Shown: positions 1,809 through 28,804, numbered from the stretch's first letter. The stretch: DNA of 32,000 nt from Planctomycetota bacterium (GCA_022570935.1 JACZYU010000005.1:4891-36890); one strand, 5' to 3'. The notes: generated by a model not told the origin, from the letters alone. Program-made: numbers and translations.

Positions 1809-3512
1809 CTAACTACCCGACATAATTACGTCTGATTCTATTCCTTCCGGGGAGCCTTTGATGTTTCTTCTGAAAAGTGCCTGCATTCCACTGGAGGCCT
1901 TGGTGGATAATCTGGAACCAAAATCCTCATAGATAATAATACCTTCAACATCCGGCAGTTTTTCAATGAGTTCCATACCCTTCTCCAGCCCCAGGACAAA
2001 TACTCCTGTGGAAAGTGCGTCTGCCCTGATCGCATTGCCTGCAACTATTGTCACACTAACGATGCCCTTAACGGGGTTGCCGGTCCTTGGATCGATTATG
2101 TGTGAATACCGCTCGCCATCAATAGTAAAGAATTTTTCGTAGTCACCGGAAGTAGATACGGCTTTATCTCTAATCTCAAATGAACCAAGGAGCCCCTCGC
2201 TCTTGCGTGGGTGTTGCAGACCTATAACCCATGAATCTTTCCCCGGAGGCGCTCCATACGCATAAATATTTCCAGCGAAGTTTATGAGTGCAGAATTTAT
2301 TCCGTTTCCTTTAAGTACCCTGGTTGCCATGTCAACAGCATAACCCTTTCCAATCCCGCCCAGATCAATCTGCGTACCGGAATTCCTGAAGTATATAGTC
2401 TTTACAATACTCGGGTCACGGAAGAGTGACTTTTTAACTCTTTCTTCAATAATAATGTTTTTATAAGAAACTGATTCAAGCGCTGATTTCAGTTCTTCTT
2501 TACCTGGAATTCTTCCCTGCTCCTTGAAAAATCCCCACTTTTTCATGAGAGGGCCTATTGTAATATCAAAGGCGCCATCAGTAATATCACTATACTGTAA
2601 AGATTGTTCTATTACGTAAGCAAGCTCGTTGTCACAGATGGTTGGTTCCGATGCGGCATTTTTATTAACTTTCGACAGCTCGCTCTCCTCTTTATAATTG
2701 CTCATCAGGTAATCAAGCCTGTTAATCTCTTTGAATACGTCATTGAATGCTTTTTCAGCTTTATATTTGCCTGCAACATAGGCGGAGACCTCAAAGAGTG
2801 TTCCCATGCTCAATGCCGCCTTTTTGAATAGTGTTAATTCCTGCTCCCGGCCTTCATCGCTAAACTTCACCCTTTCCATGGAAGCAATATTATCTGTCCT
2901 TTTACCGCTTAAGTAGAATTGATCAATGACGGTAAGCACCTTCTTCACTCCCGTACACATAGTAACAACAGACATGGTAGCCCCTGTTATATTAATGATG
3001 TCCTTATTGATTCTTAGAGGGTTCTTAAGGGTCTTGCCCTTAAATTGGTAAAGGAACCTCTTCTTTGCAATCTCAGCGCCCCTGCTTTCACGGTAAACGA
3101 GTATGGCTATCTCCCTGATCTTACCCTTCGGACTCACAGATACTATGAATGTATAAGGATGGAACTTGCCAACCTCCTCGGTAATTATTGCATATCCCGT
3201 AACCTTGCCGGATTTAATGCCTATGTATGTGATAAAACTGTTTTCATATATCTTCCGCTTTAGTCTGTTCTGAAGCACTGTCTTGCTCTCATCAGTAAGG
3301 ATTATCTTGTCATACACTATCTCATCACAGTCCGGAAGCACCTTCAGCAATGCCTGTTCTTCCGTCAGGAAAACATGGGGTTGATAATTCTCCACCGGTT
3401 CTAGCTCAAAGCCCGCCTGTGCATGGCACGTAGAAGTAATTGCAAACACCAACGCCGGTATCAATAAATAAACGTTTACTCTTCTCATTTTCAATAAACC
3501 TAACCTAGACAA
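1809..3512 (-). CDS. Secreted FMN_bind-domain + ApbE flavin-transferase fusion protein (paralog 1, catalytic motifs intact)
   Basis: 567-aa ORF. The likely true start is ATG 3488 (MRRVNVYLLIPALVFAITSTCHA signal peptide); TTG 3512 abuts a repeat module. The N-half carries the RnfG/NqrC/NosR-type flavinylation motif INITGATMS (TGAT codons 2976-2987). The C-half carries ApbE signatures MGT, IDLGGIGKGYAVD, STSGDYEK and SHIIDPRTGNP (2073-2102). Confidence 0.8.
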   Translation of the reverse strand: MSRLGLLKMRRVNVYLLIPALVFAITSTCHAQAGFELEPVENYQPHVFLTEEQALLKVLPDCDEIVYDKIILTDESKTVLQNRLKRKIYENSFITYIGIKSGKVTGYAIITEEVGKFHPYTFIVSVSPKGKIREIAILVYRESRGAEIAKKRFLYQFKGKTLKNPLRINKDIINITGATMSVVTMCTGVKKVLTVIDQFYLSGKRTDNIASMERVKFSDEGREQELTLFKKAALSMGTLFEVSAYVAGKYKAEKAFNDVFKEINRLDYLMSNYKEESELSKVNKNAASEPTICDNELAYVIEQSLQYSDITDGAFDITIGPLMKKWGFFKEQGRIPGKEELKSALESVSYKNIIIEERVKKSLFRDPSIVKTIYFRNSGTQIDLGGIGKGYAVDMATRVLKGNGINSALINFAGNIYAYGAPPGKDSWVIGLQHPRKSEGLLGSFEIRDKAVSTSGDYEKFFTIDGERYSHIIDPRTGNPVKGIVSVTIVAGNAIRADALSTGVFVLGLEKGMELIEKLPDVEGIIIYEDFGSRLSTKASSGMQALFRRNIKGSPEGIESDVIMSGS

Positions 3513-3976: not shown

Positions 3977-4474
3977 TTAGCCGTCACTAAGAATTTCTTC
4001 GATCCTCATGAGAGCCTCTTCTTCTCGCTCTCCTGTAGACTTTTTCCTCTCCCATCTGTATGCAGCGCTGCCTCCCCTTGCTTTTTCCTGAACCTGACAG
4101 CTTACCTTTACGGAACTGATCAGATTATTACCGGAAATCCTGAATGTAATCCGATATCTCTCTTTCCAGTAATCATCAAGGAACCGATCTGTCATTATAC
4201 TTCTTGCCTTCCTTTGCGAGAAACCTTCAACCCAGCCGGTTTTGATTAGACCTTTTTCCTTATTTATTTTGTCCAGGGGCAAGTCGCCCAGTGACATAAG
4301 AACCGCCGACCACACATCCTCAAAATCTTCGTTAAAAGTCTTTGTATATTTTGAAGATTGCGAACCTGTAGAACGGTCATCATAAGCCTGATATCTTGAA
4401 GAAGTACCAGGCAGGGTACATCCTGTTAAGCAAAAAAGTAATGGTATTAATAATAATATTTTTAAGGTGGACAT
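3977..4474 (-). CDS. Putative lipoprotein (function unknown)
   Basis: 165-aa ORF starting at ATG 4474. The N-terminus MSTLKILLLIPLLFCLTGC is a signal peptide with a lipobox (LTGC). The rest is a soluble domain; no family is confidently recognised. Confidence 0.65.
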   Translation of the reverse strand: MSTLKILLLIPLLFCLTGCTLPGTSSRYQAYDDRSTGSQSSKYTKTFNEDFEDVWSAVLMSLGDLPLDKINKEKGLIKTGWVEGFSQRKARSIMTDRFLDDYWKERYRITFRISGNNLISSVKVSCQVQEKARGGSAAYRWERKKSTGEREEEALMRIEEILSDG

Positions 4475-4734: not shown

Positions 4735-5714
4735 TTATCCTGCTGCCTTTTCAAGATTGGATTTTGATGATTCTACGATTATCTCTAAGATGTTTTTTAA
4801 GGAATTATCCTGTGGGTATAAACGTAATGCCTCTTTGATCAATTGAGCGGATTCTTCGCTCCTTCCTTCTTCTAAAAGCATAACAATCAAGTTGTAAAAA
4901 ATGGAGGCGCCTTTTTGGCCCAGGTTTATGGCAATCCTGTATTCATCTACCGCTTTTGCTTTTTCACCTGTTTCTATATACAAATTTGCAAGCGCTATAT
5001 GTGTAGACGCTTGTTTTGGTTCTATCTCAATGGCCTTTTCATATTCCCTCAGGGCTTCGTCCGGTTTAAGTTCCTCAACATAAATACTTCCCAGTAGTAA
5101 ATGAGCTTTAGCATAATCAGGTTTCTTATCTATCGCTTTTTGTAATGTTTCCTGTGCGGAAAGATTTTCTCCTCCCATGTAATAGGCATTACCGAGCCGA
5201 TAGAGATCCTCTGCTGAAACATCTTGTGAGGATGCTATATAACCCTGATAAAACAAGGCAGCCTCTCTGTGCATATTATTATTTAAATATAAATCCGCTA
5301 TGCTCCGTTTGAGCTCTGCACTCCCAACACCCAGCCGTTGCGCAGTTTCAAAGGCATCTATGGCATTATTGTATTCTCCTTTATCCAGATACAGATTACC
5401 AATATCAATAAGAGTTTCTGTCGCACCAGGCCATACCTGCAAGATATAACCATATACTGCAAGCGCATCTTCAAGTTTGCCATAATTACGTAATGTTGAG
5501 GCCAACTGCAGATTTGCTTCCTTCGATAGTGGAGCTAGTGTAACTGCATTTCTGTAGGCGCATAAGGCTCCTTCGCTATTACCCAGGCTTTCGAGACAAA
5601 TGCCGATTGAAATAAAAAGGCCGCTATCAAGTTCCGGAGGTTTGGATATCTTTTGAAACGCCTGTAACGCATTTCTATAGTCCTTATCTGGCAAATACGT
5701 GGCGTGTTTCATGA
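4735..5714 (-). pseudogene. TPR-repeat protein, C-terminal part of a gene split by an IS insertion
   Basis: ORF-track entry 4735..5724 begins with VYDVM, which is encoded by the IS terminal repeat. Host sequence starts at KHATYLPDKDY. The remainder consists of multiple TPR units (for example AYRNAVTLAP, AIDAFETAQRLG, ALREYEKAIEIEP). Confidence 0.8.
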
Positions 5715-7101
5715 CATCGTACACACTTTTTGTTTCACGAGATCGTACACAGATTGTATATTTCCATAAGGGAGGATATACAATGGATAAAAAAAAGTAA
5801 AACAGTTAATGAAGAAATTAATTTACGAGAACTTTGTATTAAGCTATACAATGAAGGTAAAAAACCAACAGAAATCTCCAGGAGCTTACGTCGTACACGA
5901 AATTGGGTCTATAAATGGATAAAACGATATAAGTCAGGAGATCCAAAATGGTATTTAGATGAATCCAAGGAACCAAAGAAGAAGCCGACAAAGGTCGATC
6001 AAGAACTAGAGAACAACATTGTTGATATCCGAAAAAAGTTAGTAAAACGTGACACTCCAGAAACACGATACGCTTTTCATGGAGCAGTCGCAATTCATCA
6101 AGAATTAGATAAATCAGGATATAAAGACAAGCCTAATTTATCAACGATTAACCGTATTATTAAACGAAACGGATTAATTGTAAAAGAGCAAAGGAAAACA
6201 GGTAATAAAGAATCAAAAGTATATTATCCCGGTATATGTACCAGATATCCAGGGCACGTTTACCAACTTGATTTAGTAACACCAAGGTATATTACTGGAT
6301 ATGGGCGAATAGTTTCAGTAAACCGTATTGACGTTTATTCGGCAAAAGCAAACTTAAACCAATACCAATCCAAAGGAGCAGACAGTATTATTAGCTTTGC
6401 CATAGAAGATTGGAGTGAACATGGTATACCACATTACTTGCAATTAGACAATGAAGCGGCTTTTCGTGGTAGCCTGTATCATCCCAGGACATTTGGCAAA
6501 CTGACACGTTTTTGCTTAAACTTTGGTGTAGAATTAATTTTTATTCCATTCAAAGAGCCTTGGCGTAACGGTTATATTGAAAGTTTTAACAGTCGATTCA
6601 ATGAAAACCTCTGGCTCTTTCAGAAATTTACAGATTTAGAGCATTTAAGAAACGAAGCAAAACTATTTAAAGATAAATATAACAACTTTCAAACTTATAA
6701 GAAAAAACACTTTAGCAAACAGTACTTATTTGGATACACAACACGCTATTTCCCAAAGGGATTCAAATTTGATCTTTCAACAGAGTTACCTATTACTAAT
6801 GGTAAAATCCATTTTATAAGACTTGTTAATGAAAAAGGCTATATTAATGTCTTTAATGAAAATTTTTACATTAACAAAGATTTTAGTTTTGAATACGTAT
6901 GGGCAACTATTTTTACTAAAGAACAATTGTTAAGATTCTATTACCAAGCAACAAAAGATTCTAAAGAAGAATTGATAAAAACTGTTGCTTATAAACTCAG
7001 GGAGACTGTAAAAAACAGAATGCCTGTTAAAAAGTTTTGCTAAAGTGTGTACGATGTCATGACACAGCTAGTAGCACTAAGAAGTGTGTACGATGTCATG
7101 A
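5709..7101 (+). mobile_element. Insertion sequence with an rve-type DDE transposase (IS481/IS3-superfamily-like), including flanking TCATGA copies
   Basis: Left end TCATGA-CATCGTACACACT (5709-5727) is the inverted complement of right end AGTGTGTACGATG-TCATGA (7083-7101). The palindromic hexamer TCATGA sits at both junctions (5709-5714 and 7096-7101). Subterminal copies of the end sequence lie at 5735-5752 and 7044-7062. The element carries a single transposase ORF. Confidence 0.85.
5730..7043 (+). CDS. DDE (rve/integrase-core) transposase with an N-terminal HTH
   Basis: 437-aa ORF. The HTH-like segment is KPTEISRSLRRTRNWVYKWIKRY. The candidate catalytic triad lies in YQLDLVTP, LQLDNEAAFRG and PWRNGYIESFN. 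The SD-preceded ATG at 5783 is one nucleotide out of frame across an A8 run (5789-5796), so the true start and intactness are uncertain. Confidence 0.8.
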   Translation: MFHEIVHRLYISIREDIQWIKKSKTVNEEINLRELCIKLYNEGKKPTEISRSLRRTRNWVYKWIKRYKSGDPKWYLDESKEPKKKPTKVDQELENNIVDIRKKLVKRDTPETRYAFHGAVAIHQELDKSGYKDKPNLSTINRIIKRNGLIVKEQRKTGNKESKVYYPGICTRYPGHVYQLDLVTPRYITGYGRIVSVNRIDVYSAKANLNQYQSKGADSIISFAIEDWSEHGIPHYLQLDNEAAFRGSLYHPRTFGKLTRFCLNFGVELIFIPFKEPWRNGYIESFNSRFNENLWLFQKFTDLEHLRNEAKLFKDKYNNFQTYKKKHFSKQYLFGYTTRYFPKGFKFDLSTELPITNGKIHFIRLVNEKGYINVFNENFYINKDFSFEYVWATIFTKEQLLRFYYQATKDSKEELIKTVAYKLRETVKNRMPVKKFC

Positions 7102-7522
7102 AACTTGGCAAATACGCACTACCCAGGTATCGCACCGGTTTCAGGTTTTCGGGTTCGATATCTAAAGCCTTGGCATATGCCCCAATTGCGTCATCTACCC
7201 TGTCTTGCATCATCATATAAACATGCCCCAGGTTAATATAGATACCTGCAGTTTCTTTCTTCGCTAACGCAGACACATAAGCAGATTCAGCATCAGACAA
7301 TCTATTTCCCCTATACGCTTCATCCCCTTTCCTGACGAGTTCAGAGTAACTGCCTTTCATTTTAGTCTGGTTTTGATAAGTCTCTGCTATGACTACAGAG
7401 TGATATTGTAAAATCACAATAAATAGTAAAAATAACAATCTGATCATCCGGCAGCTTTTTTCAGCCGCTAAGACCAAAAGGCACAAAATTTCCTGTTTCT
7501 TGTCCATAAATTTCCCATCCAA
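7096..7522 (-). pseudogene. TPR-repeat protein, N-terminal part of the IS-split gene
   Basis: ORF-track entry 7040..7522 ends in MTSYTLLSATSCVMTSYTL, which is encoded by IS sequence. The host part ends ...PVRYLGSAYLPSF. It contains a signal-like segment MIRLLFLLFIVILQYHSVVIA (alternative ATG 7447) and TPR-like units. Confidence 0.75.
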
Positions 7523-7643: not shown

Positions 7644-8315
7644 CTACAATCCTTTCAAATTAAAAGAGATTTTCTGGATGCACCATACCGCCACAGGCTT
7701 CCCAAAGTATGTCGCAGGCTTAAATCGCCACTTTAAGACAGTTTCCCTGGCGGACGCCCCAAAACCATCAAACCCGTATACGTCTAGTACCTGCACACTC
7801 GAAACATTACCTTTTTCATCCACCATAAACTGTAATGTAACATCACCTTCAATCCGTTTAGTTCTTGCGTAATATGGATAAGGAGGCTGGATATGATAAA
7901 TTTTATGTGGCGACTCATCTACCTCCTCCAGTTCGAGTATTTGTCTGTCTTTGGGGCTTGCTTCAGAAAAGTAATCTGCCTGAAATACCAGGTCAGCGTC
8001 AGAAACATTAAGTGATGGTTGAACATTAATATTTAATACCCTTCGTGGTTTCATCTTTTTCTGATTAAGAGAAACCATTTTTAGCCTCAGTTTTTTCTTT
8101 TTAATCTTTTCGACAGGTCTTTCCTTTGATTTCTTACGATTAAGTGTCTTCGGTTCTTTAGGCTGTATTTGAAAAACCTCTATAGCCTTCAGTTTATCCT
8201 GCACATCTTTTAGTTCAGGTGTCCTGTTCATGGATACCAGAACCAGGAAAAACAGAAGGTTCAACCCCAAAGCGCTTAAAATTATCCATATGTTTTTTCG
8301 TCTAAATCCGGCCAT
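7644..8315 (-). CDS. tonB: TonB-family energy transducer
   Basis: 223-aa ORF with an N-terminal TM anchor (IWIILSALGLNLLFFLVLV) and a Lys/Pro-rich spacer. The C-terminal TonB domain reads PPYPYYARTKRIEGDVTLQFMVDEKGNVSSVQVL...KWRFKPA. The classic SxxxH motif is not evident in the TM helix. Confidence 0.8.
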   Translation of the reverse strand: MAGFRRKNIWIILSALGLNLLFFLVLVSMNRTPELKDVQDKLKAIEVFQIQPKEPKTLNRKKSKERPVEKIKKKKLRLKMVSLNQKKMKPRRVLNINVQPSLNVSDADLVFQADYFSEASPKDRQILELEEVDESPHKIYHIQPPYPYYARTKRIEGDVTLQFMVDEKGNVSSVQVLDVYGFDGFGASARETVLKWRFKPATYFGKPVAVWCIQKISFNLKGL

Positions 8316-8439: not shown

Positions 8440-8647
8440 GTCATGCCTAAGGCAGCCACCAGAGGCGCCCCTTGGAGCAACTTCTAGGTCCGCCACAGGC
8501 GGGATCGCTGTGGCAAATAGATTTACTGATGTAAACATCGTCACGCCCGTCTGCCATCTGTCGGGCAGGGACGATGTACTCCAAAACTTATTGTCTCGGA
8601 AACTTTGTGACAACTTTGAAATTCCGTGTCTTTCCGTGGTAAACTTC
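8440..8647. repeat. Intergenic repeat block filling the exbD-tonB spacer
   Basis: 8440-8520 aligns along its length with the reverse complement of 22262-22350 and shares modules with 3513-3545 and 17871-17957. 8618-8647 (GAAATTCCGTG...GTGGTAAACTT) recurs at 18141-18160. ORFs 8417..8719 and 8434..8649 lie in this repeat DNA. Confidence 0.75.
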
Positions 8648-9005
8648 AAAGCTCCTTTTTTGATGCTACCGAGATTCTATCAGCACCTGCCAGCCTGCAC
8701 TCATCCATTACGTCTATGAGAACTCCTGTTTGAGACCCTTTATCGGGCACGATTACAACAGGGCTGCCAAGACGTTCTCTGAGCCTTTTCTCTACCAGTG
8801 AACGAAGGGTTAAAATGTCTATCCTCCGCTGTTCAAACCAAATCTCTCCTTCAGAAGAAATCCCTATCCTCATATTCTCTTTTTCCAACGATTCGGCAGT
8901 TGTAGCCTTCGGCTTCTTGACCTGGATCCCTGTTTCCCTGACAAATGTAGTTGTCACAATAAAAAATATCAGGAGGATAAAGACCATATCTATGAGAGGG
9001 GCCAT
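8646..9005 (-). CDS. exbD: ExbD/TolR-family protein with a truncated or damaged 5' end
   Basis: 119-aa ORF MAPLIDMVFILLIFFIVTTTF..., that is, the conserved PLID TM segment only 2 residues after the start. The periplasmic domain ends ...VVIVPDKGSQTGVLIDVMDECRLAG. The same frame upstream reads DTKGIN before the ATG and is then closed by TAA (9024-9026). Confidence 0.7.
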   Translation of the reverse strand: MAPLIDMVFILLIFFIVTTTFVRETGIQVKKPKATTAESLEKENMRIGISSEGEIWFEQRRIDILTLRSLVEKRLRERLGSPVVIVPDKGSQTGVLIDVMDECRLAGADRISVASKKEL

Positions 9006-9484
9006 GTTAATTCCTTTAGTGTCTTATTTTGTTGTTGTCTGCGGCTGGAAGGGGGAAGAGTCTTTACCAGTCCATAAAATTCACCTGCAGCCCCGCTTAA
9101 TAATGTATGTACCTGATTCAGGATTTCCTCTTTCCGTCCGGCATCATCTTTAAGGTGGTTGACGGTTTTTTCTGCGCTAGACATAGATTCCTTTTGTCTT
9201 TTTACGGAAATCTTTAAATCTATAACGGCATCTGAAAGTTTATCTCGTTCTGAATGGAGTTTATAAACAAGCCCCTTCAGTCTTTCTTCCTCTTTTGAGA
9301 TTCTGATGCTCTCCTGCTTGAGTTCTTCTTTCGCCTGGGTAATAGCCTTTGTCAATTGCTCCAATGCTGAATTTCCCTCATCCGCATGGAGTGTAAAAGT
9401 GAAAGTCATGCTAAAAACCAATGTTAATATCGTGTAACAAATGATCGTCTTTAGGTGTAAAATGATGTGCGTTTTGCTATTCAT
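8990..9484 (-). CDS. Signal-anchored coiled-coil protein, possibly the N-terminal stub of a long MotA/ExbB (TtpC-like) protein
   Basis: 164-aa ORF with a hydrophobic N-terminus (IICYTILTLVFSMTFTFTLHA) followed by a heptad-rich coiled coil. There are no channel TM helices. Its last codons (SSRRQQQNK..., 9005-9049) resemble an ExbD cytoplasmic tail in a frame offset by one from exbD. Confidence 0.4.
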   Translation of the reverse strand: MNSKTHIILHLKTIICYTILTLVFSMTFTFTLHADEGNSALEQLTKAITQAKEELKQESIRISKEEERLKGLVYKLHSERDKLSDAVIDLKISVKRQKESMSSAEKTVNHLKDDAGRKEEILNQVHTLLSGAAGEFYGLVKTLPPSSRRQQQNKTLKELTWPLS

Positions 9485-9566: not shown

Positions 9567-10446
9567 TTATTCATCTACGATCCTTACCTGTGAAAAACTG
9601 ACAGGGAAATTTATAATCTCCGGAGGCTGCTGCCTCATGAGGATCTTGATTGACTTCTCAATGATATGACTGGGGACGGCAGAAGAATCATTGACCCATC
9701 CGGTAGCGGCGCTTCCATCGCCATTATTCTTTTGTGTTAACCATACACCGCTATCCTTGCCGTCATCAGTCCTATACGCGAGAACAACCTTCCCCTACCC
9801 GTACAAATTCCGCATGCGGCTCTCTGCCGTCTTCAAGGCGTATATTGTCCCTGTATATCTCGCTTGTAACAGCCAGGCGCAGTTCATCCTTGCAGAAACT
9901 CCATAGCTGATTACACGCCTCTGCAATGTCCATAGGATTTTGTGTAGAAATGCCGTTTGATATTGCATCAAGCTTTGCCGTTCTCTCTTCCAGTTGGAAA
10001 GGGATTCCATTGTTAACCTGTCCTCTGAGAAGTCTCACATGAGAAAGAACATAGTTTGACAGTTCCTCTTCCTTTTCCTTATAACCGGCAATGGCCGTTT
10101 TTAATTTCTCCTCTTTGCCGCCGAGGGTTCCCATTTCATTTTCAATATCCTCTGTTTCGCTTATCAGGTCTTCATGTGTTACTCTCAGTGTTTGAATCTG
10201 TATTCTCAGATCCTGAATTTCCATGTCTTTTTCCTGCTTTCTACTATAGTAGTCCTGCCGTTCTTTACGAAGTGTTGTAACCGTATTCTGTAACTCATTC
10301 ATTAACACCCTGAGCCTGGCGTTGTTATCAATTTGCCCTTTTATGGCTCCTTTATTTGAGAATTGTGCAGCAGCATAAGGCTCATAGCAAAACACAACAG
10401 CAGAAATAATTATGAGCACCAGAATAAATATAAGAGAATGTTTCAT
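9567..10446 (-). pseudogene. DUF3450-like periplasmic coiled-coil protein (TonB-system accessory, TtpB-like), frameshifted
   Basis: The 224-aa ORF (9772..10446) has a signal peptide and a long coiled coil and ends ...EFVRVGEGCSRV*. Skipping one G of the G4 run (9792-9795) gives 74 further open codons (KVVLAYRTDDGKDSGVWL...KSIKILMRQQPPEIINFPV...) to TAA at 9567-9569. This continuation has no start codon of its own. Confidence 0.6.
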
Positions 10447-10474: not shown

Positions 10475-10813
10475 CTAGCGTGAGTTCCTGCAAAATAGAA
10501 ATATTCCTGAAACTGTTAAAGACACAAGGCTGAACCCCAGTATGCACAGCAAAATTCTCTTTAAATTAAAAAAATTAAAATCATGTAATTTAACTACAAA
10601 ATGTCCAAATCTGCGCCGGTTATCCAGTTCTTCAACGACATCTCCGCTATATTTGTCAACGAATATCTCGGTGTTGTGTTTTTTCCAAAATATTTTTAAT
10701 ACAGTGTAAGAACGCTATAATGCATGCGGCACAACTTCTTCAAAAACAACTTGTATATGGCCTCTTGCAGAATGTACACATCTGACAATATCTTCCACGG
10801 AGTAATTATTCAT
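10475..10813 (-). pseudogene. Small PepSY-like domain + C-terminal TM protein interrupted by an in-frame TAG
   Basis: ATG 10813 gives MNNYSVEDIVRCVHSARGHIQVVFEEVVPHAL, then TAG (10715-10717), then the same frame continues RSYTVLKIFWKKHNTEIFVDKYSGDVVEELDNRRRFGHFVVKLHDFNFFNLKRILLCILGFSLVSLTVSGIFLF... to TAG 10475-10477. The pattern ...Y.V......E..VD..SG.V plus an LH motif plus a TM helix is PepSY-like. It is not in the ORF track because both pieces fall below the cutoff or lack a start. Confidence 0.5.
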
Positions 10814-10828
10814 TTTTCAGAGACAAAC

Positions 10829-11278
10829 TTACACAATTATTGCAGTAGCCCTTGATTTCAAACGTATGTGTTTTATATTGAAACCTTTTTTTCTGCAGAT
10901 ATCATTTACAATCTTTTCTGTTTCTCTGTGCTTTATTTCAATAATGTTCTTACACTTTAAGCATACTACATGGCCAATATTATATTGTTCTACTATTTCA
11001 TAAACGTAATGATCCGGGGCGATATCAGTTTTCTTTACTATTCTGTAATCTTCCAGCAATTTTATTGTCCGGTAAAGGGTGCTTTTTGATATGCGGTCCC
11101 TTTTTGCCTGTAAATTGTTATATAATCTGTCAATTGAGAAGTGCTTAATCGTCCTTGAGGTCTCCAGGATTTCCTTCAGGATATGCTGCCTTTCATAAGT
11201 ATAATTTAAACCCTTTGCCCTGAGAAACTCCCTGAACAAGGCTTCTTTGATAAGGTCATTGTCTTTCCGTGGTGACAT
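10829..11278 (-). CDS. Fur-family transcriptional regulator, atypical (metal ligands largely missing)
   Basis: 149-aa ORF with a winged-helix region (ISKSTLYRTIKLLEDYRIVKK) and a dimerisation region typical of Fur. The HHDH-x2-CxxC region reads NIGHVVCLKC, and there is no C-terminal CxxC. Confidence 0.7.
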   Translation of the reverse strand: MSPRKDNDLIKEALFREFLRAKGLNYTYERQHILKEILETSRTIKHFSIDRLYNNLQAKRDRISKSTLYRTIKLLEDYRIVKKTDIAPDHYVYEIVEQYNIGHVVCLKCKNIIEIKHRETEKIVNDICRKKGFNIKHIRLKSRATAIIV

Positions 11279-11420
11279 ATTTTTTTGAAACCTCTAAAAC
11301 ACTACATGAATACCCAGGCGAAATAACTTAAGATTTCACTCTGTGGTGTATGGCGATTGTATTACTCCACAGGGCGGGTTTATAAACGATCTTTGCGCCC
11401 CTGACCCGTCCGAGTCAGAA

Positions 11421-11533
11421 CCAAAAAGGAGTTAATAAATTACAAATCTCAAATAATAATTGGAAATTATTTGCTATTTGTTATTTGGTGCTTATCAGAT
11501 ATCATGCATAACTCAACAAATAAATATTTTGCC
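11421..11533. repeat. Short form of the intergenic repeat seen at 3550-3913
   Basis: 11421-11453 (CCAAAAAGGAGTTAATAAATTACAAATCTCAAA) and 11477-11533 (ATTTGTTATTTGGTGCTTATCAGATATCATGCATAACTCAACAAATAAATATTTTGCC) match 3550-3583 and 3857-3913 with only a few substitutions, in the same orientation. Confidence 0.8.
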
Positions 11534-11562
11534 AAAACTGTCAAAACATTTTTGCGAAGATA

Positions 11563-13245
11563 CTAGAATGCACATGCCTGCCTTACTCTTTGCCGTGATA
11601 TCGGTTCAGCCTTTTGTTCAAAATAAGTTTTTATGCCATTTGATATCTCAACTTCTATACTACCATCGGATCTTTCATAAAGGTCGATCCCCTCAGCATC
11701 AGGTATATTATTGATAAATCCCATATCCTTATTCAAGCCTGACAGGTGAGCGGCGGCGGCGAGGGCATCGGCTTTAAATGCGGTAGGAGCGACTACAACT
11801 GCCTCAAGCAAATTGACGTCAAAAGGTCTTTGCAGATTTGAGTCGGTAATATGGGAATATTTCTTTCTGTTATTTATAAGCATTTTCTCGTAATTTCCTG
11901 AGATTGCGACGGCACCGTTGTTTAAATGGACAAATCCTATGCTTTTCCCCTTATCTTTAGGGTCTGGTATTGCTATTCTCCAGGCAGTATCGCCAGGCGG
12001 GTGTCCTATAACCCTTATAGCGCCTCCAAAGTTAACCAGGGCATGTGATATGCTATGATTTTCCAATACTCTGATAACACTATCTACCACATATCCTTTA
12101 ACTAACAGTGAAATGTCAAGTTTAGTCTGCTCATCTTTGAAAAAGATGGTACCTCCGCCATTCTTGTCTATACCAAGGACTATGTTTTTATAGGTAGAAG
12201 CATTGCGTAAGGACACTATGTCTTCAGATTCACTAAATTTCTTTTTATTCCTGTTTAATGTGTCAGCCAACGAACCTTCTGTTATGTCAAACCCTCCGTT
12301 TGTTATCTTACTATAATGGAGAGAGAATTTGACAATATCGAAAAGTTCTTTGTCGCATGTAATTGGTTTTTTCCATGCCTTTTTATTTATTTTGGATATT
12401 TTGCTATTCTTCCGATCTCTATTAAGTATTTTGTTCAGACGATCAATCTCTTTAAACGCCTCTTTAAAGGCAAGTGATGCATTCTTCTCCGTTGTGCCTG
12501 TTATCAATATGTCTATAATATCACCCATAGAGGGATATGCTTGTGAAAAGATTTTTTGCGTCTCTTCTTCCCCTGCCTGATTCCCTATCCGGCTATAAGG
12601 TGTTGGGCTGATTTCCCGATTCCCCTGTAGATAAAATTCATCCAGGACGGCGCGCATCTTTCTTACGCCACGATTCACACCCCTTACAGACGTAGTGGCG
12701 CCGGTGATATTTATTATGTCTTTATTGATTCGTATAGGATTATTCAGGGACTTGCCTTTGTACTGGTGGAGAAATCTCTTCCTTATAACATCCTTGCCTC
12801 TGCTTTCCCTGTAAATCATTACTGCTACTTGTTCTATCTTCCCATCTGGTTTCATGCTCATAATAAAGGTTATCGGATGAAAGCAGCCCATCTCGTCTGT
12901 TATGATGGCATACTTCTTTATACTCCCATTCTTTTTGCCTGTGAATACAACGAAGGCATCTTCATCAATCCGGGCCTTTAGTCTGTTTTCCAACCTCTGT
13001 TTCTCATCTTGAGTAAGCACAAGGCGATCCACCAAAACCTCGTCACATCCTTTGAAAACGGACGCAATAGCCTCCTCTTCCTCAAGGAATACCTGCATTT
13101 CATAATTATCAGAAGGCTCTACATCATCTATAGTGATTTTCTGCCCTATTATGTAGTCGTACTGTGGGAATGCAACTCTTTGATAAAAGGCTATAACCAG
13201 GATTAAGAAAGGCAAGAAGAGAGAAGTAATAATGCTTAGCTTCAT
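11563..13245 (-). CDS. Secreted FMN_bind-domain + ApbE-like fusion protein (paralog 2, ApbE motifs degenerate)
   Basis: 560-aa ORF colinear with 1809..3512. The FMN_bind motif INITGATTS is retained (TGAT codons 12694-12705). The ApbE signatures diverge: MGD for MGT, LDISLLVKGYVVD for IDLGGIGKGYAVD, AISGNYEK for STSGDYEK, and SHITDSNLQRP (11824-11853) for SHIIDPRTGNP. Confidence 0.75.
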   Translation of the reverse strand: MKLSIITSLFLPFLILVIAFYQRVAFPQYDYIIGQKITIDDVEPSDNYEMQVFLEEEEAIASVFKGCDEVLVDRLVLTQDEKQRLENRLKARIDEDAFVVFTGKKNGSIKKYAIITDEMGCFHPITFIMSMKPDGKIEQVAVMIYRESRGKDVIRKRFLHQYKGKSLNNPIRINKDIINITGATTSVRGVNRGVRKMRAVLDEFYLQGNREISPTPYSRIGNQAGEEETQKIFSQAYPSMGDIIDILITGTTEKNASLAFKEAFKEIDRLNKILNRDRKNSKISKINKKAWKKPITCDKELFDIVKFSLHYSKITNGGFDITEGSLADTLNRNKKKFSESEDIVSLRNASTYKNIVLGIDKNGGGTIFFKDEQTKLDISLLVKGYVVDSVIRVLENHSISHALVNFGGAIRVIGHPPGDTAWRIAIPDPKDKGKSIGFVHLNNGAVAISGNYEKMLINNRKKYSHITDSNLQRPFDVNLLEAVVVAPTAFKADALAAAAHLSGLNKDMGFINNIPDAEGIDLYERSDGSIEVEISNGIKTYFEQKAEPISRQRVRQACAF

Positions 13246-13268
13246 GTAGTAATATCCTGAAAAAAAAG

Positions 13269-13395
13269 TGACTAAAGTGAACTAAAGTGTAAAGTGCCTA
13301 AAGTTAGGAAAAAGGTGGAAATCATTAATTTTTAAATAATACATATTCATTTTCCCCCAACTTTAGTCACTTTAGTTCACTTCACACTTTAGGCA
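13269..13395. repeat. Symmetric array of four 7-10-nt units and their unit-wise reverse complements around an AT-rich spacer
   Basis: Left arm: TGACTAAAG, TGAACTAAAG, TGTAAAG, TGCCTAAAG (13269-13303). Right arm: CTTTAGTCA, CTTTAGTTCA, CTTCACA, CTTTAGGCA (13361-13395). The array lies between the TlpA-like gene and the start of paralog 2, with an A8 run at 13260-13267. Confidence 0.8.
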
Positions 13396-13465
13396 CTTCA
13401 AGCCTGGCTTCGGCGTGAACTCAGCCGAACGGTAGCAGCTATGCAGCGCTGTGTTTTTTGGTTAA

Positions 13466-13981
13466 CTATTTGGCGCTCAAAAGTTTTTCTATTATTTGTG
13501 AAAGTTCATCCTCGCCCACCAAACCGACGTGATTCTGCACAAGATTACGATTCCTGTCGTAAATATGTGTTGTCGGGATTGAACGGATATTATAGTGGAA
13601 ACCGACATCTTCATTGCCCAGATAGACTGGATATTTAATTTCTGTTTTGCCAATAAATTTCTGTAATTTTTCTTTGTCAAAGTCAAAAGAAATGCCGATT
13701 ATTGACAACCCCTTAGATTTATATTTTTTATATATATTTGATAAGACAGGGGCTTGTTTCGTACAAGGCGCACAAAAAGTAGCCCAGAAATCCACGATTA
13801 GAACTTCGCTCTTTGAATTTGTTATTTCATTTTCCAGAAAACCGGCATCAACAGTTTCTATAGTGTTTGCATATAAAGAGTATTCTTGAAATACGGAGGA
13901 TAGACAAAAAGCTGCTATCGGTGTCAATATTAAGAATCTCAGGTATAGATTCTTAATAAGAGAATCAAAAAAATGTATCAT
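13466..13981 (-). CDS. TlpA/ResA-like periplasmic thiol:disulfide oxidoreductase (thioredoxin fold)
   Basis: 171-aa ORF with an N-terminal membrane anchor or signal, the thioredoxin active site WATFCAPC, and the downstream cis-Pro region IRSIPTTHIY. Confidence 0.8.
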   Translation of the reverse strand: MIHFFDSLIKNLYLRFLILTPIAAFCLSSVFQEYSLYANTIETVDAGFLENEITNSKSEVLIVDFWATFCAPCTKQAPVLSNIYKKYKSKGLSIIGISFDFDKEKLQKFIGKTEIKYPVYLGNEDVGFHYNIRSIPTTHIYDRNRNLVQNHVGLVGEDELSQIIEKLLSAK

Positions 13982-14080
13982 GAGATTTTACTCCTATCCA
14001 CTCGTTAATAACCACCCTGGAAATTGATGAGCTTAAAAATGTATCAGAAACTCTAATTCGTCAATAAATATAACTGAGGT

Positions 14081-14112
14081 GGGGCGTTATACGGGGAGGT
14101 GTGTAACGCCCC
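14081..14112 (-). terminator. Candidate intrinsic terminator or hairpin after the porin-like gene
   Basis: GGGGCGTTA (14081-14089) pairs with TAACGCCCC (14104-14112) across a 14-nt loop, about 80 nt downstream of the stop at 14194. On the minus strand it is followed by an A/T-rich tract (TTATATTTATT), not a clean U-run. Confidence 0.35.
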
Positions 14113-14193
14113 TTTCCTTGTTATTGTCTTGCACTTAAACAAAATGGAATTTTATGACACCTCAGTCATAATCGTGTACTCATAAAATTCAGA

Positions 14194-15633
14194 TTAAAAA
14201 TATGTTGCAACTGAAAATAACAACACGTTATTACTTACCTCAGGAGTTGTTACACGACCAGCCTCCCAATTAATCTGATATTCGGCCTTAAAAACGGTAT
14301 CTTCGGTATACCTGAAGTTAAATCCGGGCGTTAAACGAGTCCTTCTTCTATCACCCGCATTTGGTAGTGGTTGATTTACATTAAGTTCTCCCCATCTTAC
14401 TACGGCCGTAAAAGTAGAGTCATCCGTAAAGAAGGTTGGCGCAAGGTCCTTAAAGGTCTGCGGCATAAAGTGGTATCTTGGTTCTATATAATATCCCCAC
14501 ATATCTCCATTATATAGAGCGCTATTTTCAGTGTCATTGTCAAAAGCCCCTTCTCTTTCTATTGATGCATGCGCATATTCTCCAACCAGTTCAAAAGGGC
14601 CTTTCTGATAAGTCCAGTCAAAAGCCTTAATTGTCAGCCTGTTACTATCATGGTCATCTATATATCCCGTATGTACGGAAACACCTAATTCAAGACCAAG
14701 AAAAGGGCTAAACGCTACACGTCCAACAATTGCCGGGTTGCTATTGTTGTCCGACTTTTGACTTCCCCTTGCACTTCTTATAAAGCTGTCTCCGGCACCT
14801 ACAACTCCACTATCATCTGCAGCCGAAAAACCATTTACCGCATAGATTTCGTAGTCAAGTTTTGACATTTCCGTGGGGTAAAATGTACCAAAGAAACCCA
14901 TTCCTGCTTCGCTGAGGGTTGTAGGTATAATCCTTCTATTTACCATTGGCCTGGCTGTCAGGTCCTGGAGGGGCGAATCGTGGACAAGGTTAAACTTACC
15001 GAGAGGGCTCAATATTATGCCTGCACGGTAATTGATCCAATCAGTTATAAGGAAATCTATTGTTGCAAATTCAATCTTTATCTCGCCTTTACTACCTTGA
15101 ATACCACCTGTGGTTTGAGGTCCTCCATCCTCAATCTCCAACTCCATTGCAAACTTTACCCTATCAGACACATCGGAGTAAATAAACGGGATAAGCCTGT
15201 GCTGACGAAAGAAATTTTCACCATTTTCTGTAAATTGAAGCTCCATGTCCATATATCCGCCTAAATAGGTATTTCTGCCAAACCTGCGTAAAAATGGCTT
15301 TCCATATTGTCTACCAAATACCGGCGCAAGGCCTTTGTCACTAAGCTCCTGGGCTTTTTTAGCCCAGTAAAATTCCTCTCCAGGGAGAAGACCTTTTACA
15401 TCGTCCCTCAGGGACTCAAGTTCCTTAGTGGTTTCTGCCTGTTGTTCGAGTTGTCCTTTCAACTCCATAAGCATTTTCTCCATAGCCGCCACCTTTGCCC
15501 TGAGATCCTCGCCAGCGGCTGATACATTCGAACATACAGTACCAAGAAAAAGGGCAGACAGGCACATAAACATAATAATATACTTCTTCATACATATACT
15601 CCTTTCAAAAAAAGTATTTAAAATTATAATCAT
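14194..15633 (-). CDS. Outer-membrane beta-barrel porin-like protein with an N-terminal coiled coil
   Basis: The likely start is ATG 15591 (MKKYIIMFMCLSALFLGTVCSNVSA signal peptide, GAAAGGAG upstream). A coiled coil (LRAKVAAMEKMLMELKGQLEQQ) is followed by alternating amphipathic beta-strand patterns and a C-terminal aromatic residue (...LLFSVATYF), typical of OM barrels. The resemblance to OprO/P-type porins is only a general impression. Confidence 0.6.
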   Translation of the reverse strand: MIIILNTFFERSICMKKYIIMFMCLSALFLGTVCSNVSAAGEDLRAKVAAMEKMLMELKGQLEQQAETTKELESLRDDVKGLLPGEEFYWAKKAQELSDKGLAPVFGRQYGKPFLRRFGRNTYLGGYMDMELQFTENGENFFRQHRLIPFIYSDVSDRVKFAMELEIEDGGPQTTGGIQGSKGEIKIEFATIDFLITDWINYRAGIILSPLGKFNLVHDSPLQDLTARPMVNRRIIPTTLSEAGMGFFGTFYPTEMSKLDYEIYAVNGFSAADDSGVVGAGDSFIRSARGSQKSDNNSNPAIVGRVAFSPFLGLELGVSVHTGYIDDHDSNRLTIKAFDWTYQKGPFELVGEYAHASIEREGAFDNDTENSALYNGDMWGYYIEPRYHFMPQTFKDLAPTFFTDDSTFTAVVRWGELNVNQPLPNAGDRRRTRLTPGFNFRYTEDTVFKAEYQINWEAGRVTTPEVSNNVLLFSVATYF

Positions 15634-15730
15634 TCTTGCGTCTCATCCTCAATTAGTAGTTAAAAAAAATACCTTTATATCTTTAAACTGTTATAACCTA
15701 TTGAGTGATTTTATATTACATACCATTGTC

Positions 15731-24449: not shown

Positions 24450-25589
24450 ATGAAGGAAAAAATCAGGATAGCTATTGTTGGTGTGGGGAATTGTGCCAGT
24501 TCATTGATTCAGGGAATTGAGTATTATAAGGATAATAATGATATTATTGGCCTGATGAATTATGACCTTGAGGGTTATAAACCAGGTGATATCGAAGTTG
24601 TTGCGGCTTTTGATGTTGACAAAAGGAAAGTCGGGAAAAATGTAAATGAAGCAATATTTGCAAAACCAAATAATACAACGATCTTCGAAAAGGATATTGA
24701 AAATAATGGTACTATTGTCAAGATGGGAAAGATTCTCGATGGCATATCAGACCATATGAAGGTTTTTCCTGAAGATAGAGCATTTATACCTTCTGATGAA
24801 GAGCCTTGTGATGTAGTTAAAGAATTAAGAGATAGCAATACAGAGATATTGTTGAATTACTTACCGGTTGGTTCAGAAGATGCGACAAAATTTTATGCAG
24901 AATGTTGTTTAGAAGCGGGAGTTGCGTTTATAAATAACATACCGGTATTTATAGCATCTGATGAAAAATGGGCGCAAAAATTCAGGGACAAAGGATTGCC
25001 TATTATAGGTGATGACATCAAGGCACAGCTTGGCGCCACAATAACCCATAGAACACTGACAAGGCTTTTTAGAGACCGTGGAGTAAAACTTGACAGGACA
25101 TATCAGTTAAATACAGGTGGAAACACTGATTTTTCCAACATGCTTAATAAAAACCGACTTAGATCTAAAAAAATCTCAAAAACTGAAGCTGTCCAATCTC
25201 AATTAGAAACACCACTTGAAGCAGAAAACATTCATATAGGCCCCAGTGATTATGTGCCCTGGCAAAATGACAATAAGATATGCTTTTTAAGGATGGAAGG
25301 CAGAATGTTTGGGAATGTTCCTATGAATCTAGAATTAAGATTGTCTGTTGAAGATTCACCCAATAGCGCTGGAGTTGCCATAGATGCCGTCAGGTGCTGC
25401 AAACTCGCACTTGACAGGAAGATTAGTGGGCCATTAATTGCCATCTCAGCCTTTACAATGAAACATCCCCCGGTCCAATATGCTGATACTGTGGCAAAGG
25501 AGATGGTAAGGATATTCATCCGTGGACGCGAAAATGGTGAAGAGATTAATAATGTCTTGAATCGTGAGGAAAATGTACCATTGAAGTAG
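24450..25589 (+). CDS. myo-Inositol-1-phosphate (inositol-3-phosphate) synthase, short archaeal/bacterial type
   Basis: 379-aa ORF with a strong SD (AAAGGAGGAG). It has the N-terminal Rossmann motif KIRIAIVGVGNCASSLIQGIEYYK and a conserved core ...NYLPVGSE...GDDIKAQLGATITHR...SKKISKTEAV... Confidence 0.85.
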   Translation: MKEKIRIAIVGVGNCASSLIQGIEYYKDNNDIIGLMNYDLEGYKPGDIEVVAAFDVDKRKVGKNVNEAIFAKPNNTTIFEKDIENNGTIVKMGKILDGISDHMKVFPEDRAFIPSDEEPCDVVKELRDSNTEILLNYLPVGSEDATKFYAECCLEAGVAFINNIPVFIASDEKWAQKFRDKGLPIIGDDIKAQLGATITHRTLTRLFRDRGVKLDRTYQLNTGGNTDFSNMLNKNRLRSKKISKTEAVQSQLETPLEAENIHIGPSDYVPWQNDNKICFLRMEGRMFGNVPMNLELRLSVEDSPNSAGVAIDAVRCCKLALDRKISGPLIAISAFTMKHPPVQYADTVAKEMVRIFIRGRENGEEINNVLNREENVPLK

Positions 25590-25889
25590 TTTCAGGAGGA
25601 TATTAGAACGTCATTTTTACCCGCCATAAAGCACGTCGGGCAAGCACGCTGGTTTTTGTGGCCAGCCAAGTCACATCAGGCAGGCTGAACCATTCGCTTT
25701 GCTTTATTCTTAGTTCTTCAGTATTTGTCAACCTGAGTTGCCGGAAAGTAACTCAGGCTGGCATCATGTCACCGCAAGATAAACTTCTCGAAAAATCTCT
25801 AACGAGTAAGATACACAATTCGTTTGGAGAGTTGTATGTAGTCAAAAAATGTGCAATTCTTAGATCAAATTTATCAAGAGGGAATAGTG

Positions 25890-27947: not shown

Positions 27948-28804
27948 GCAAAGAATATTTATTGCTGATGAAACAGATTGCCTTCAGGGGAGGGGAAATC
28001 GCCCTCAAACTTATCAGGAAAAGTAGTTTCTCTCTGAAACCGGACAACTCTGTCCTGACAAAGGTGGACACAGAAATATCAGCAATTGCACGAAGCGTCC
28101 TAAAAGATATATTGGCAAAACCAGATCATATATTGATTGATGAGGAAGATATAGAAAACACCAGATATCTTGATCAATCATACCTTGAAGCCACACGTTT
28201 TATCTGGGTATTAGACCCAATTGACGGAACAAGGGCATTTTCGAACCGTATGCCTAATTTTGGTATATCGATAGGTTTACTGAAAGACTTGAAACCCTGG
28301 CTTGGAGTGATCTATTTCCCAATGCTTGGTGAACTATTTTATTCTGAAGGAAAACAATCCATCTTCGTCCAGAATGCTTTCACAAAATCTAAAATAAAAA
28401 CAGTCATCACCCCAATTGACCAGCAGATAACAAGCCAATCCATATTTATCTGCAATGATTCTTTTTCTGAGAAGTTCGATTGGGATTATTCTGATTGCCA
28501 ATTAATGAATCCTGCCTGTGCGGTTTTAGGTTTATGCTGGCCATCTATTGGCCGGGGATGCGGCGCTTTTTTTGGCGCTCATATTTGGGATTTTGCAGGC
28601 TCCTGGCCAATTTTTTTGTCAGCAGATTTGAGTCTTCGTTCATATCAAACTGGCAATGAAATGAGTCAATTAGATATTGGACTATTTTTCGGGAAAAGTA
28701 AAAATCCCTGGAGATTGAGAGAGTGGTACATCCTTTCCTCTGAACGAAACTTCTCATTACTCAGAGAAAAAATAATACCCAAATATCAAAAGCAAGAAGG
28801 TTGA
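27944..28804 (+). CDS. Inositol monophosphatase (IMPase/SuhB) family phosphatase
   Basis: 286-aa ORF whose GTG overlaps the upstream TGA (GTGA 27944-27947). Family motifs are KPDNSVLTKVDTEIS, LIDEED, WVLDPIDGT (28205-28231) and WDFAGS. Confidence 0.8.
   Translation: MSKEYLLLMKQIAFRGGEIALKLIRKSSFSLKPDNSVLTKVDTEISAIARSVLKDILAKPDHILIDEEDIENTRYLDQSYLEATRFIWVLDPIDGTRAFSNRMPNFGISIGLLKDLKPWLGVIYFPMLGELFYSEGKQSIFVQNAFTKSKIKTVITPIDQQITSQSIFICNDSFSEKFDWDYSDCQLMNPACAVLGLCWPSIGRGCGAFFGAHIWDFAGSWPIFLSADLSLRSYQTGNEMSQLDIGLFFGKSKNPWRLREWYILSSERNFSLLREKIIPKYQKQEG

Follow-up and report, generated by a model that had tools for sequence, protein, structure and literature searches.

A conserved TlpA-like and FMN_bind-ApbE gene pair of anammox planctomycetes in a Scalindua region that probably joins pieces of separate units

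Do genes that stand in series on one strand, each suggestive of envelope redox chemistry, form one system? The question is raised by positions 10475-15633 of a 32,000-nucleotide stretch from a Planctomycetota bacterium (GCA_022570935.1, JACZYU010000005.1:4891-36890), which we call the window and number from its first letter. The original prediction placed five minus-strand genes there, for a porin-like outer-membrane barrel, a TlpA-like oxidoreductase, an FMN_bind-ApbE-like protein (FMN, flavin mononucleotide), a Fur-like regulator and a PepSY-like protein, and proposed that they form one group for flavin-based iron reduction beside a TonB-type locus. In our judgment, the interval more probably consists of joined pieces of separate units: a module of the TlpA-like gene and the FMN_bind-ApbE gene (ApbE2), a set of the porin with a DUF3576-like lipoprotein and a second FMN_bind-ApbE protein (ApbE1), and a decayed TonB2 locus. 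The source is a metagenome-assembled genome (MAG) of 2.5 Mb that is 82% complete. Homologs of the barrel and of ApbE2 carry the name Candidatus Scalindua, which places the host, on sequence grounds, in this genus of marine anammox planctomycetes (Brocadiales). The closest named relative is S. arabica, whose ApbE2 has 86% amino-acid identity.

The case for a TlpA-ApbE2 module comes from gene order in relatives. A pattern scan of 185,579 species genomes, using the ApbE2 alignment and clade-specific peptide patterns, returned 23 loci, all of them in Brocadiales; since the patterns are clade-specific, an absence of ApbE2 outside this order is not implied. The TlpA-like gene adjoins ApbE2 in 18 of the 23, lying upstream of it in Scalinduaceae and Anammoxibacter and downstream in Brocadiaceae. 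Because this adjacency is kept across anammox families in both gene orders, a functional link between the thiol oxidoreductase and the covalently flavinylatable extracytoplasmic protein is supported. The ratio of nonsynonymous to synonymous substitution rates (dN/dS) against the closest relative is 0.11 for the TlpA-like gene and 0.20 for ApbE2, and values of 0.11-0.26 for the former and for both ApbE2 domains indicate purifying selection. We therefore lean toward regarding the two genes as a conserved two-gene extracytoplasmic redox module. The features of the interval are as follows (aa, amino acids; ORF, open reading frame).

14194-15591, minus strand: porin-like barrel, with a longer ORF to 15633 (479 aa); AlphaFold (AF2) model and Foldseek
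13466-13981, minus strand: TlpA/ResA-like thioredoxin-fold protein with CAPC, 171 aa; Pfam Thioredoxin_8, AhpC-TSA and Redoxin
13246-13465: spacer with a dispersed repeat
11563-13245, minus strand: ApbE2 (FMN_bind and ApbE domains), 560 aa; Pfam ApbE 194.8 bits, FMN_bind 27.9 bits
11279-11562: spacer, the site of the HMA_2-186 gene in relatives
10829-11278, minus strand: Fur-family regulator, 149 aa; Pfam FUR 93.7 bits
10475-10813, minus strand: the "PepSY-like" ORF, read as a chimeric non-gene from comparison with relatives

The thioredoxin-fold protein has its CAPC motif at residues 70-73 and a hydrophobic N-terminal anchor, in agreement with the CxxC protein first proposed here. Its best equivalog match is to the NCBIfam ResA subfamily (E 1e-22; 80.9 bits, under the cut-off of 170), and no assignment to a single equivalog (ResA, TlpA or DsbE) rises above the NCBIfam cut-off. 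The reading of ApbE2 as an FMN-acceptor protein fused to an ApbE domain also holds. Its FMN_bind domain (PF04205) scores 27.9 bits against a Pfam cut-off of 22, with an NCBIfam RnfG-like match over residues 68-201; the ApbE domain (PF02424, cut-off 25.6) scores 194.8 bits, and that of ApbE1 297.5 bits. The acceptor core T-G-A-T ends at Thr184 (ITGAT) in ApbE2 and does not vary among the orthologs of either ApbE2 or ApbE1. The acceptor-motif Asp stands five residues ahead of the core's first Thr, versus three in D-x-x-[ST]-G-A-[ST]; loss of the motif Asp is reported to have only a minor effect (review PMC12052999).

The two ApbE proteins differ in how their catalytic motifs have been kept. A maximum-likelihood tree separates the ApbE2 (GCFH) from the ApbE1 (GKFH) type by one branch with 100/99 support. 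The ApbE1 clade retains TSGDYEKF, YSHIIDP and ADALSTG, in which alignment to Listeria FmnB and the review cited above place the catalytic Ser, His and Asp; the FmnB triad is Ser257/His273/Asp301 (PMC12052999). These residues and the Ser-Thr that follows are fully conserved in the ApbE1 clade, whereas in the ApbE2 clade one or another of them is substituted in various orthologs. The window's own ApbE2 aligns to FmnB (7esa; E 9e-32) with the Ser, His and Asp of the triad present, and it reads D-A-L-A-A where ApbE1 reads D-A-L-S-T, so that only the Ser-Thr of DALST is replaced. We take this Ser-Thr to be the metal and flavin adenine dinucleotide (FAD) site motif whose role is known from work on Treponema Ftp. 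Compared with the ApbE/Ftp FAD:protein FMN transferases (Listeria FmnB 7esa, E. coli ApbE 2o18), the anammox paralogs share a homologous C-terminal domain, and ApbE1 has all of the signature motifs. However, both bear an N-terminal acceptor domain of their own, and the ApbE2 clade lacks conserved catalytic Ser/His/Asp and metal-site Thr. The host genome holds just two ApbE genes and three FMN_bind proteins, of which two are the ApbE fusions and the third is RnfG/NqrC-like; FMN_bind-ApbE fusions were seen in about 9 of ~145 other Planctomycetota sampled. From its motifs, ApbE1 is likely the flavin transferase of the cell. The ApbE-like domain of ApbE2 evolves under purifying selection, but we think it somewhat more plausible than otherwise that, over the clade as a whole, its constraint as a transferase has been lost.

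Two cysteines are invariant in ApbE2 and absent from ApbE1. Cys121 stands in GCFHP, where ApbE1 has Lys, and Cys558 in a motif C-[AS]-F at the C-terminus, which reads CAF in the window. Together with the CxxC of the TlpA-like protein, they suggest a flavin-to-thiol electron relay. In such a scheme, Thr184 of ApbE2 would probably be flavinylated in trans by ApbE1, the sole ApbE of the genome with an intact signature, and the ApbE2 flavin, Cys121/Cys558 and the TlpA CxxC would exchange electrons. A related arrangement has been described. Hybrid thioredoxin-like/flavinylation systems comprise ApbE, DUF3570, a thioredoxin-like protein, DUF4266 and, optionally, DsbD (Meheust et al. 2021, PMC8238504). 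They resemble the pair in placing an extracytoplasmic thioredoxin-fold gene beside a covalently flavinylated protein, in a terminal cysteine motif that is possibly redox-cycling, and in that some clusters are iron-linked. They differ from it in that the window locus has no DUF3570, DUF4266 or DsbD and a barrel without a flavinylation motif, that its thioredoxin is of TlpA/ResA type (PF13905, PF00578) rather than PF13899, and that its acceptor of flavin, an FMN_bind domain of RnfG-like type, is joined to an ApbE-like domain. The group had first been thought to lack a described counterpart. Since both these hybrid systems and PepSY-like flavinylation systems for iron have been published (PMC8238504), the general idea is not new.

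An alternative is that the two genes share no function, the TlpA-like protein being one CcsX/ResA paralog among several that serve cytochrome c maturation and ApbE2 a redundant Rnf/Nqr flavin transferase. Anammox genomes do have several CcsX-like thioredoxins each, with six in Scalindua (PMC4222556), an RnfG/NqrC-like FMN_bind protein is encoded elsewhere in the genome, and the window's ApbE2 retains its triad. However, we consider this alternative improbable: the genes stay adjacent in 18 of 23 loci despite the inverted order between families, several ApbE2 orthologs have lost catalytic residues while the acceptor motif is invariant, and the invariant cysteines are specific to ApbE2.

What might the TlpA-ApbE2 module act on? 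Its neighbors in relatives offer some indication. By Pfam, an encapsulin operon (the Linocin_M18 shell protein cEnc and a multicopper-oxidase/multihaem NIR-HAO fusion) adjoins the pair in 12 of the 23 loci. In Brocadia-type loci, a P1B-ATPase gene lies immediately upstream of ApbE2. Eight such ATPases carry HNxxT in all cases, D[YF]SCA in five and an N-terminal RxR motif in seven; the ferrosome paper (Grant et al., bioRxiv 10.1101/2020.01.10.902569) gives D[YF]SCA with HNxxT as the signature of FezB/P1B-6. The complete Brocadia pituitae locus (L091:5161-16716, AP021856) consists of HMA_2, HMA_2, ATPase, ApbE2, thioredoxin, encapsulin and NIR-HAO genes, with a TonB-dependent receptor nearby. 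The closest relatives of the window have ApbE2, HMA_2-186 (a 186-aa arginine-rich, or R-rich, protein), Fur, HMA_2-108, DtxR/FeoA and a CPC-type ATPase. As a separate observation, a fez-like set of two small HMA_2/R-rich proteins and a FezB-type P1B-6 ATPase was noted in locus L091 and in loci L061, L088, L093 and L094, where it immediately precedes ApbE2, a thioredoxin, the encapsulin and NIR-HAO, with a TonB-dependent receptor close by.

The loci of relatives thus resemble ferrosome (fez) clusters (Grant et al., bioRxiv 10.1101/2020.01.10.902569) in that P1B-ATPases with an R-rich N-terminus, some of them carrying DYSCA and HNxxT, lie next to ApbE2, and in their small R-rich HMA_2 proteins, DtxR-FeoA regulator and Fur. 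They differ in that no GxxxG FezA-like or DUF4405/FezC protein was identified, and the window itself retains only a damaged Fur and 21-32 codons of one HMA_2 gene. The likeness to the anammox encapsulin operon (Giessen and Silver, bioRxiv 10.1101/085266; Tracey et al. PMC6934571) is the directly adjoining pair in 12 loci, and a figure legend names a 'Trx' gene close to the encapsulins of freshwater anammox bacteria (PMC6934571). The difference is that no encapsulin was found in the window's genome. In that 82%-complete genome we also found no multicopper oxidase and no ortholog of either ATPase; a FezB-type P1B-6 ATPase with D[YF]SCA and HNxxT was not found, only paralogs at 26-31% identity. 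In the literature searched, no paper places ferrosome-type genes beside anammox encapsulin, ties ApbE to anammox, or ties flavin or flavinylation to anammox encapsulin.

Given these neighbors (cEnc/NIR-HAO, FezB-type ATPases, R-rich HMA_2 proteins, Fur and DtxR/FeoA), the module most likely serves the handling of iron or another metal, or else the maturation of the haem/copper encapsulin proteins and their redox supply; it would do so in the periplasm or the anammoxosome. A more far-reaching version, which we hold only tentatively and consider rather unlikely, is that the pair is the dedicated redox and maturation module of an anammox-specific iron organelle, in which a flavinylated pseudo-ApbE and a thioredoxin connect a FezB-type pump, R-rich Fez-like proteins, cEnc and NIR-HAO. 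What the anammox encapsulin does, and what the anammoxosome's iron-rich particles consist of, are open questions in the field (PMC6934571; bioRxiv 10.64898/2026.06.22.733830).

Several observations weigh against our interpretation of the pair and its surroundings. Of 41 genomes (the host's own and 40 relatives), 4 have both ApbE2 and encapsulin, 6 have only ApbE2 and 4 have only encapsulin; the link is therefore frequent, not obligate, and S. arabica and Anammoxibacter have the pair with encapsulin absent. No CcdA or DsbD scores above cut-off in the 82%-complete MAG. The window's ApbE2 may still act as a transferase, because this copy retains the Ser, His and Asp of the triad. Finally, the deletions mapped below could be assembly artefacts.

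If the pair forms one unit, where does the barrel belong? The rest of the minus-strand series, together with one plus-strand insertion sequence (IS), reads as follows.

9772-10446, minus strand: ORF for DUF3450 (TtpB-like), the broken gene spanning 9567-10446; Pfam DUF3450
8990-9484, minus strand: stub of a DUF3450+MotA/ExbB fusion, a 164-aa coiled coil; comparison with an ortholog
8646-9005, minus strand: exbD, without its N-terminal tail; Pfam ExbD from profile position 10
7644-8315, minus strand: tonB; Pfam TonB_C
4735-5724 and 7040-7522, minus strand: pieces of a TPR gene; Pfam TPR
5730-7043, plus strand: IS transposase gene (HTH_23 and rve_3, 437 aa), between the TPR pieces; Pfam
3977-4474, minus strand: DUF3576-like lipoprotein with lipobox LTGC; weak Pfam DUF3576 match, ortholog alignment and synteny
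1809-3512, minus strand: ApbE1 (FMN_bind and ApbE domains), 567 aa; Pfam ApbE 297.5 bits
2-1579, minus strand: MutS

When the window's proteins were compared by tblastn with loci of the 40 relatives, the barrel, the DUF3576-like lipoprotein and ApbE1 were syntenic in 13 genomes of three families, and barrel orthologs were present across Brocadiales. The three genes are direct neighbors in families f2 and f5 and lie 2-4 kb apart in most Scalindua. The porin belongs with the lipoprotein and ApbE1. In two annotated Scalindua loci (L049:4480-6188 and L048:3100-6993), both from genomes without ApbE2, the intervening 2-4 kb carry single-domain response regulators and DUF2325, with a DUF2582 winged helix-turn-helix gene in one of them; DUF2325 is named as a neighbor of freshwater anammox encapsulins in a figure legend (PMC6934571). 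The idea that the TPR genes are ancestral residents between barrel and DUF3576 is unsupported; at that place, other Scalindua have genes for response regulators, DUF2582 and DUF2325.

The barrel was correctly proposed to be an outer-membrane barrel with a coiled-coil N-terminus. Translation probably begins at M15 (15591), after which come a signal peptide and the coiled coil. No family in Pfam or NCBIfam matches it. An AF2 model from 24 homologs has moderate confidence (mean predicted local distance difference test, pLDDT, 61) and contains a long N-terminal helix and 16 strands. Its best Foldseek match in the PDB is OprO (4rjw; E 9e-14, TM 0.55-0.59), with general porins next. The likeness to the OprO/OprP phosphate-selective porins extends to the 16 strands and to the UniRef name 'phosphate-selective porin' of some homologs, whereas 12% identity, no Porin_O_P Pfam match, and the additional N-terminal coiled coil set it apart, in a model of pLDDT 61. 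Two further candidates were rejected. The barrel is not a DUF3570-type flavinylated barrel, since it has no [ST]GA[ST] motif; PF12094 (DUF3570) is matched neither by the window's barrel nor among the 25 families listed for the 24 homologs (E up to 1). Selenocysteine was considered because the matches of many relatives contain '1 TGA'. As those matches begin at query residues 5-12, ahead of the start assigned to M15, the TGA is putatively placed in the leader.

The TonB-type locus predicted beside the five genes is present, but it is decayed and lacks ExbB. Its order matches what we take to be the Vibrio-type TonB2 cluster (TtpB/DUF3450, TtpC, ExbB, ExbD, TonB2, TtpD). The likeness lies in the order DUF3450, DUF3450-MotA/ExbB, ExbD, TonB, TPR; the differences are the missing MotA/ExbB channel genes, a frameshift in DUF3450 and the IS that interrupts the TPR gene. 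The DUF3450 frameshift lies near 9793, where a 294-aa ortholog maps in two frames. In relative G022, the ORF orthologous to the 8990-9484 stub carries MotA_ExbB, and homology of the window to the relative ends at 9007; the fusion gene has thus been cut there, leaving a locus without ExbB, and no Pfam match to MotA_ExbB was found among the scanned ORFs of the locus. As judged from these sequence lesions, it is a decayed remnant of a TonB2-type iron-uptake locus.

The lesions continue into the two genes next to this locus. The Fur-family call is secure, with an FUR domain at 93.7 bits against a Pfam cut-off of 23.1. Compared with its closest orthologs, however, the gene is shifted in frame by 1 nt near codon 130-134 and thereby loses the second CxxC pair of its structural zinc site. 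The conserved C-terminus can still be read in another frame to about 10809 (residues 129-157 of the Fur of relative G001 at 10895-10809 by tblastn), and the frameshift variant is shared with S. rubra (L075). The PepSY-like transmembrane protein is the one member of the five that fails as a gene, the other four standing at their predicted minus-strand sites with their domain calls intact. Its ORF has an in-frame TAG at 10715-10717, and the PepSY_TM match (PF03929) reaches 24.4 bits, below the cut-off of 28.8, and is confined to the stretch that follows the TAG (profile positions 93-159 of 295). Comparison with relatives identifies 10751-10813 (~21 codons) as the N-terminal remnant of the 108-aa HMA_2 gene, and 10478-10675 as the C-terminal 66 codons of a 245-aa PepSY-type membrane protein in relative G002; the 75 bases between them (10676-10750), including the TAG, have homology to neither source gene. 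On this sequence comparison, the ORF is a deletion chimera, a scar and not a gene. Recoding of the TAG, for example as pyrrolysine, was rejected because the two halves stem from different genes.

In G002, both source genes lie on one contig (L073), about 12 kb apart, so that the window carries a collinear ~12-kb deletion; the missing segment is L073 921-12900. There the interval holds a DtxR/FeoA regulator, a P1B-ATPase, response regulators, a second Fur, a TonB-dependent receptor and DUF4198. By this mapping, the TonB locus was brought beside Fur by the ~12-kb deletion. A second deletion has removed HMA_2-186, which lies between ApbE2 and Fur in L044, L005, L073 and L076-77: by blastn, window positions 11304 and 11567 correspond to L044 7077 and 7877, and tblastn of the 186-aa protein against the window found nothing. 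With HMA_2-186 deleted, Fur frameshifted and a ~12-kb deletion running into the PepSY gene, the TlpA-ApbE2 pair would be orphaned in this host.

This raises the possibility, in our estimate a minor one, that the pair (and Fur) is itself a leftover in this genome, on its way to loss after its encapsulin and ATPase partners were lost. There are six lesions at 4.7-11.6 kb of the window, no cEnc, multicopper oxidase or FezB ortholog was found in the genome, and a repeat has been inserted between the two genes. However, both ORFs are intact with all key motifs, their dN/dS values are 0.11 and 0.20, S. arabica and Anammoxibacter retain the pair without encapsulin, and the genome is only 82% complete.

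The spacers, described as 200-290 bp long and filled with repeats, are so. Between the TlpA-like gene and ApbE2 lies a ~135-bp, partly palindromic dispersed repeat (inverted arms I11/I19/I20) with 56 matches over many contigs of the genome. It is also present in S. arabica at this site and absent in L005 and L046, where the genes are 4-5 bp apart. Because the repeat is genome-wide and the genes are so closely spaced in these two relatives, the array at 13269-13395, which had been put forward as a candidate target of the Fur-like protein, is not a specific operator. Fur boxes of the classical type show no enrichment in the window (20 observed vs 15.4 +/- 4.6 in shuffles). Promoter and terminator scans of the window gave counts at shuffle level, which are uninformative on co-transcription. 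A 13-bp GC-rich hairpin at 14081-14112, in the spacer between the barrel and the TlpA-like gene, was flagged as terminator-like on the plus strand only. A Fur-box-like sequence at 15619-15637 (14/19 consensus matches) overlaps the -10 of a promoter-like site ~30 bp upstream of the barrel start codon; matches of this quality arise at chance frequency in the window.

The weakest explanation is the model from which the question arose, that porin, TlpA, ApbE2, Fur and PepSY form one Fur-controlled periplasmic route of ferric or siderophore reduction with the TonB locus, and we consider it very unlikely: it can point to the iron-related context in relatives (Fur, DtxR/FeoA, R-rich HMA_2 proteins, FezB-type ATPases, TonB-dependent receptors), to the TonB-dependent receptor, DUF4198 and PepSY protein ~12 kb downstream of ApbE2 on the same contig in G002, to published PepSY-like flavinylation clusters with TonB-dependent receptors and Fur control (PMC8238504), and to the 14/19 site over the promoter-like site upstream of the porin gene, but it is largely refuted by the missing synteny of the five genes in relatives, where two separate conserved sets are found instead, and has against it the stop-containing PepSY chimera, the absence of ExbB, receptor and DUF4198 from the window, strong DUF3450 and PepSY homologs in only 2 of 40 relatives, and the Fur-box counts. 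From the thiol-and-flavin iron reductase route, the TlpA-ApbE2 link and the iron-related context in relatives survive, whereas a path from porin to TonB is unsupported. The likeness to PepSY-like flavinylation and FoxB-type siderophore reductases (PMC8238504, PMC11334425) lies in the Fur, TonB-dependent receptor and DUF4198 of relatives G002 and G022. The differences are that the window has 66-79 PepSY codons, below cut-off, and no DUF2271, and that the association with ApbE2 occurs in few close relatives only.

Some further features were noted. A myo-inositol-1-phosphate synthase gene recurrently adjoins ApbE2 in several anammox lineages (L079-L081, L078, L088, L092). In the window, 11 kb away from ApbE2 at 24450-28804, are an Ino1-like gene, a fusion gene of NTP-transferase, CDP-alcohol-transferase and HAD domains, and an inositol monophosphatase gene; the set looks like a pathway for an inositol-phosphate solute or lipid. 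A large STAND-type AAA_16 ATPase with TPR repeats occupies 29710-31998 and continues past the end of the window.

For the window itself, the result is mainly corrective: the five-gene iron reductase route is no unit, and half of the region is gene debris. Its relevance is low for the five-gene claim as made and moderate for the anammox field. There, the TlpA-ApbE2 pair is ancient and anammox-wide, and it is the most constant neighbor of the encapsulin operon and FezB-type ATPases. ApbE2 adds a case of a conserved ApbE domain that is apparently no longer constrained as an enzyme. The two proteins are concrete candidates for delivering electrons or reduced thiols to the encapsulin/FezB system, and the organelle-module reading, if true, would tie protein flavinylation to the iron-rich particles of the anammoxosome.

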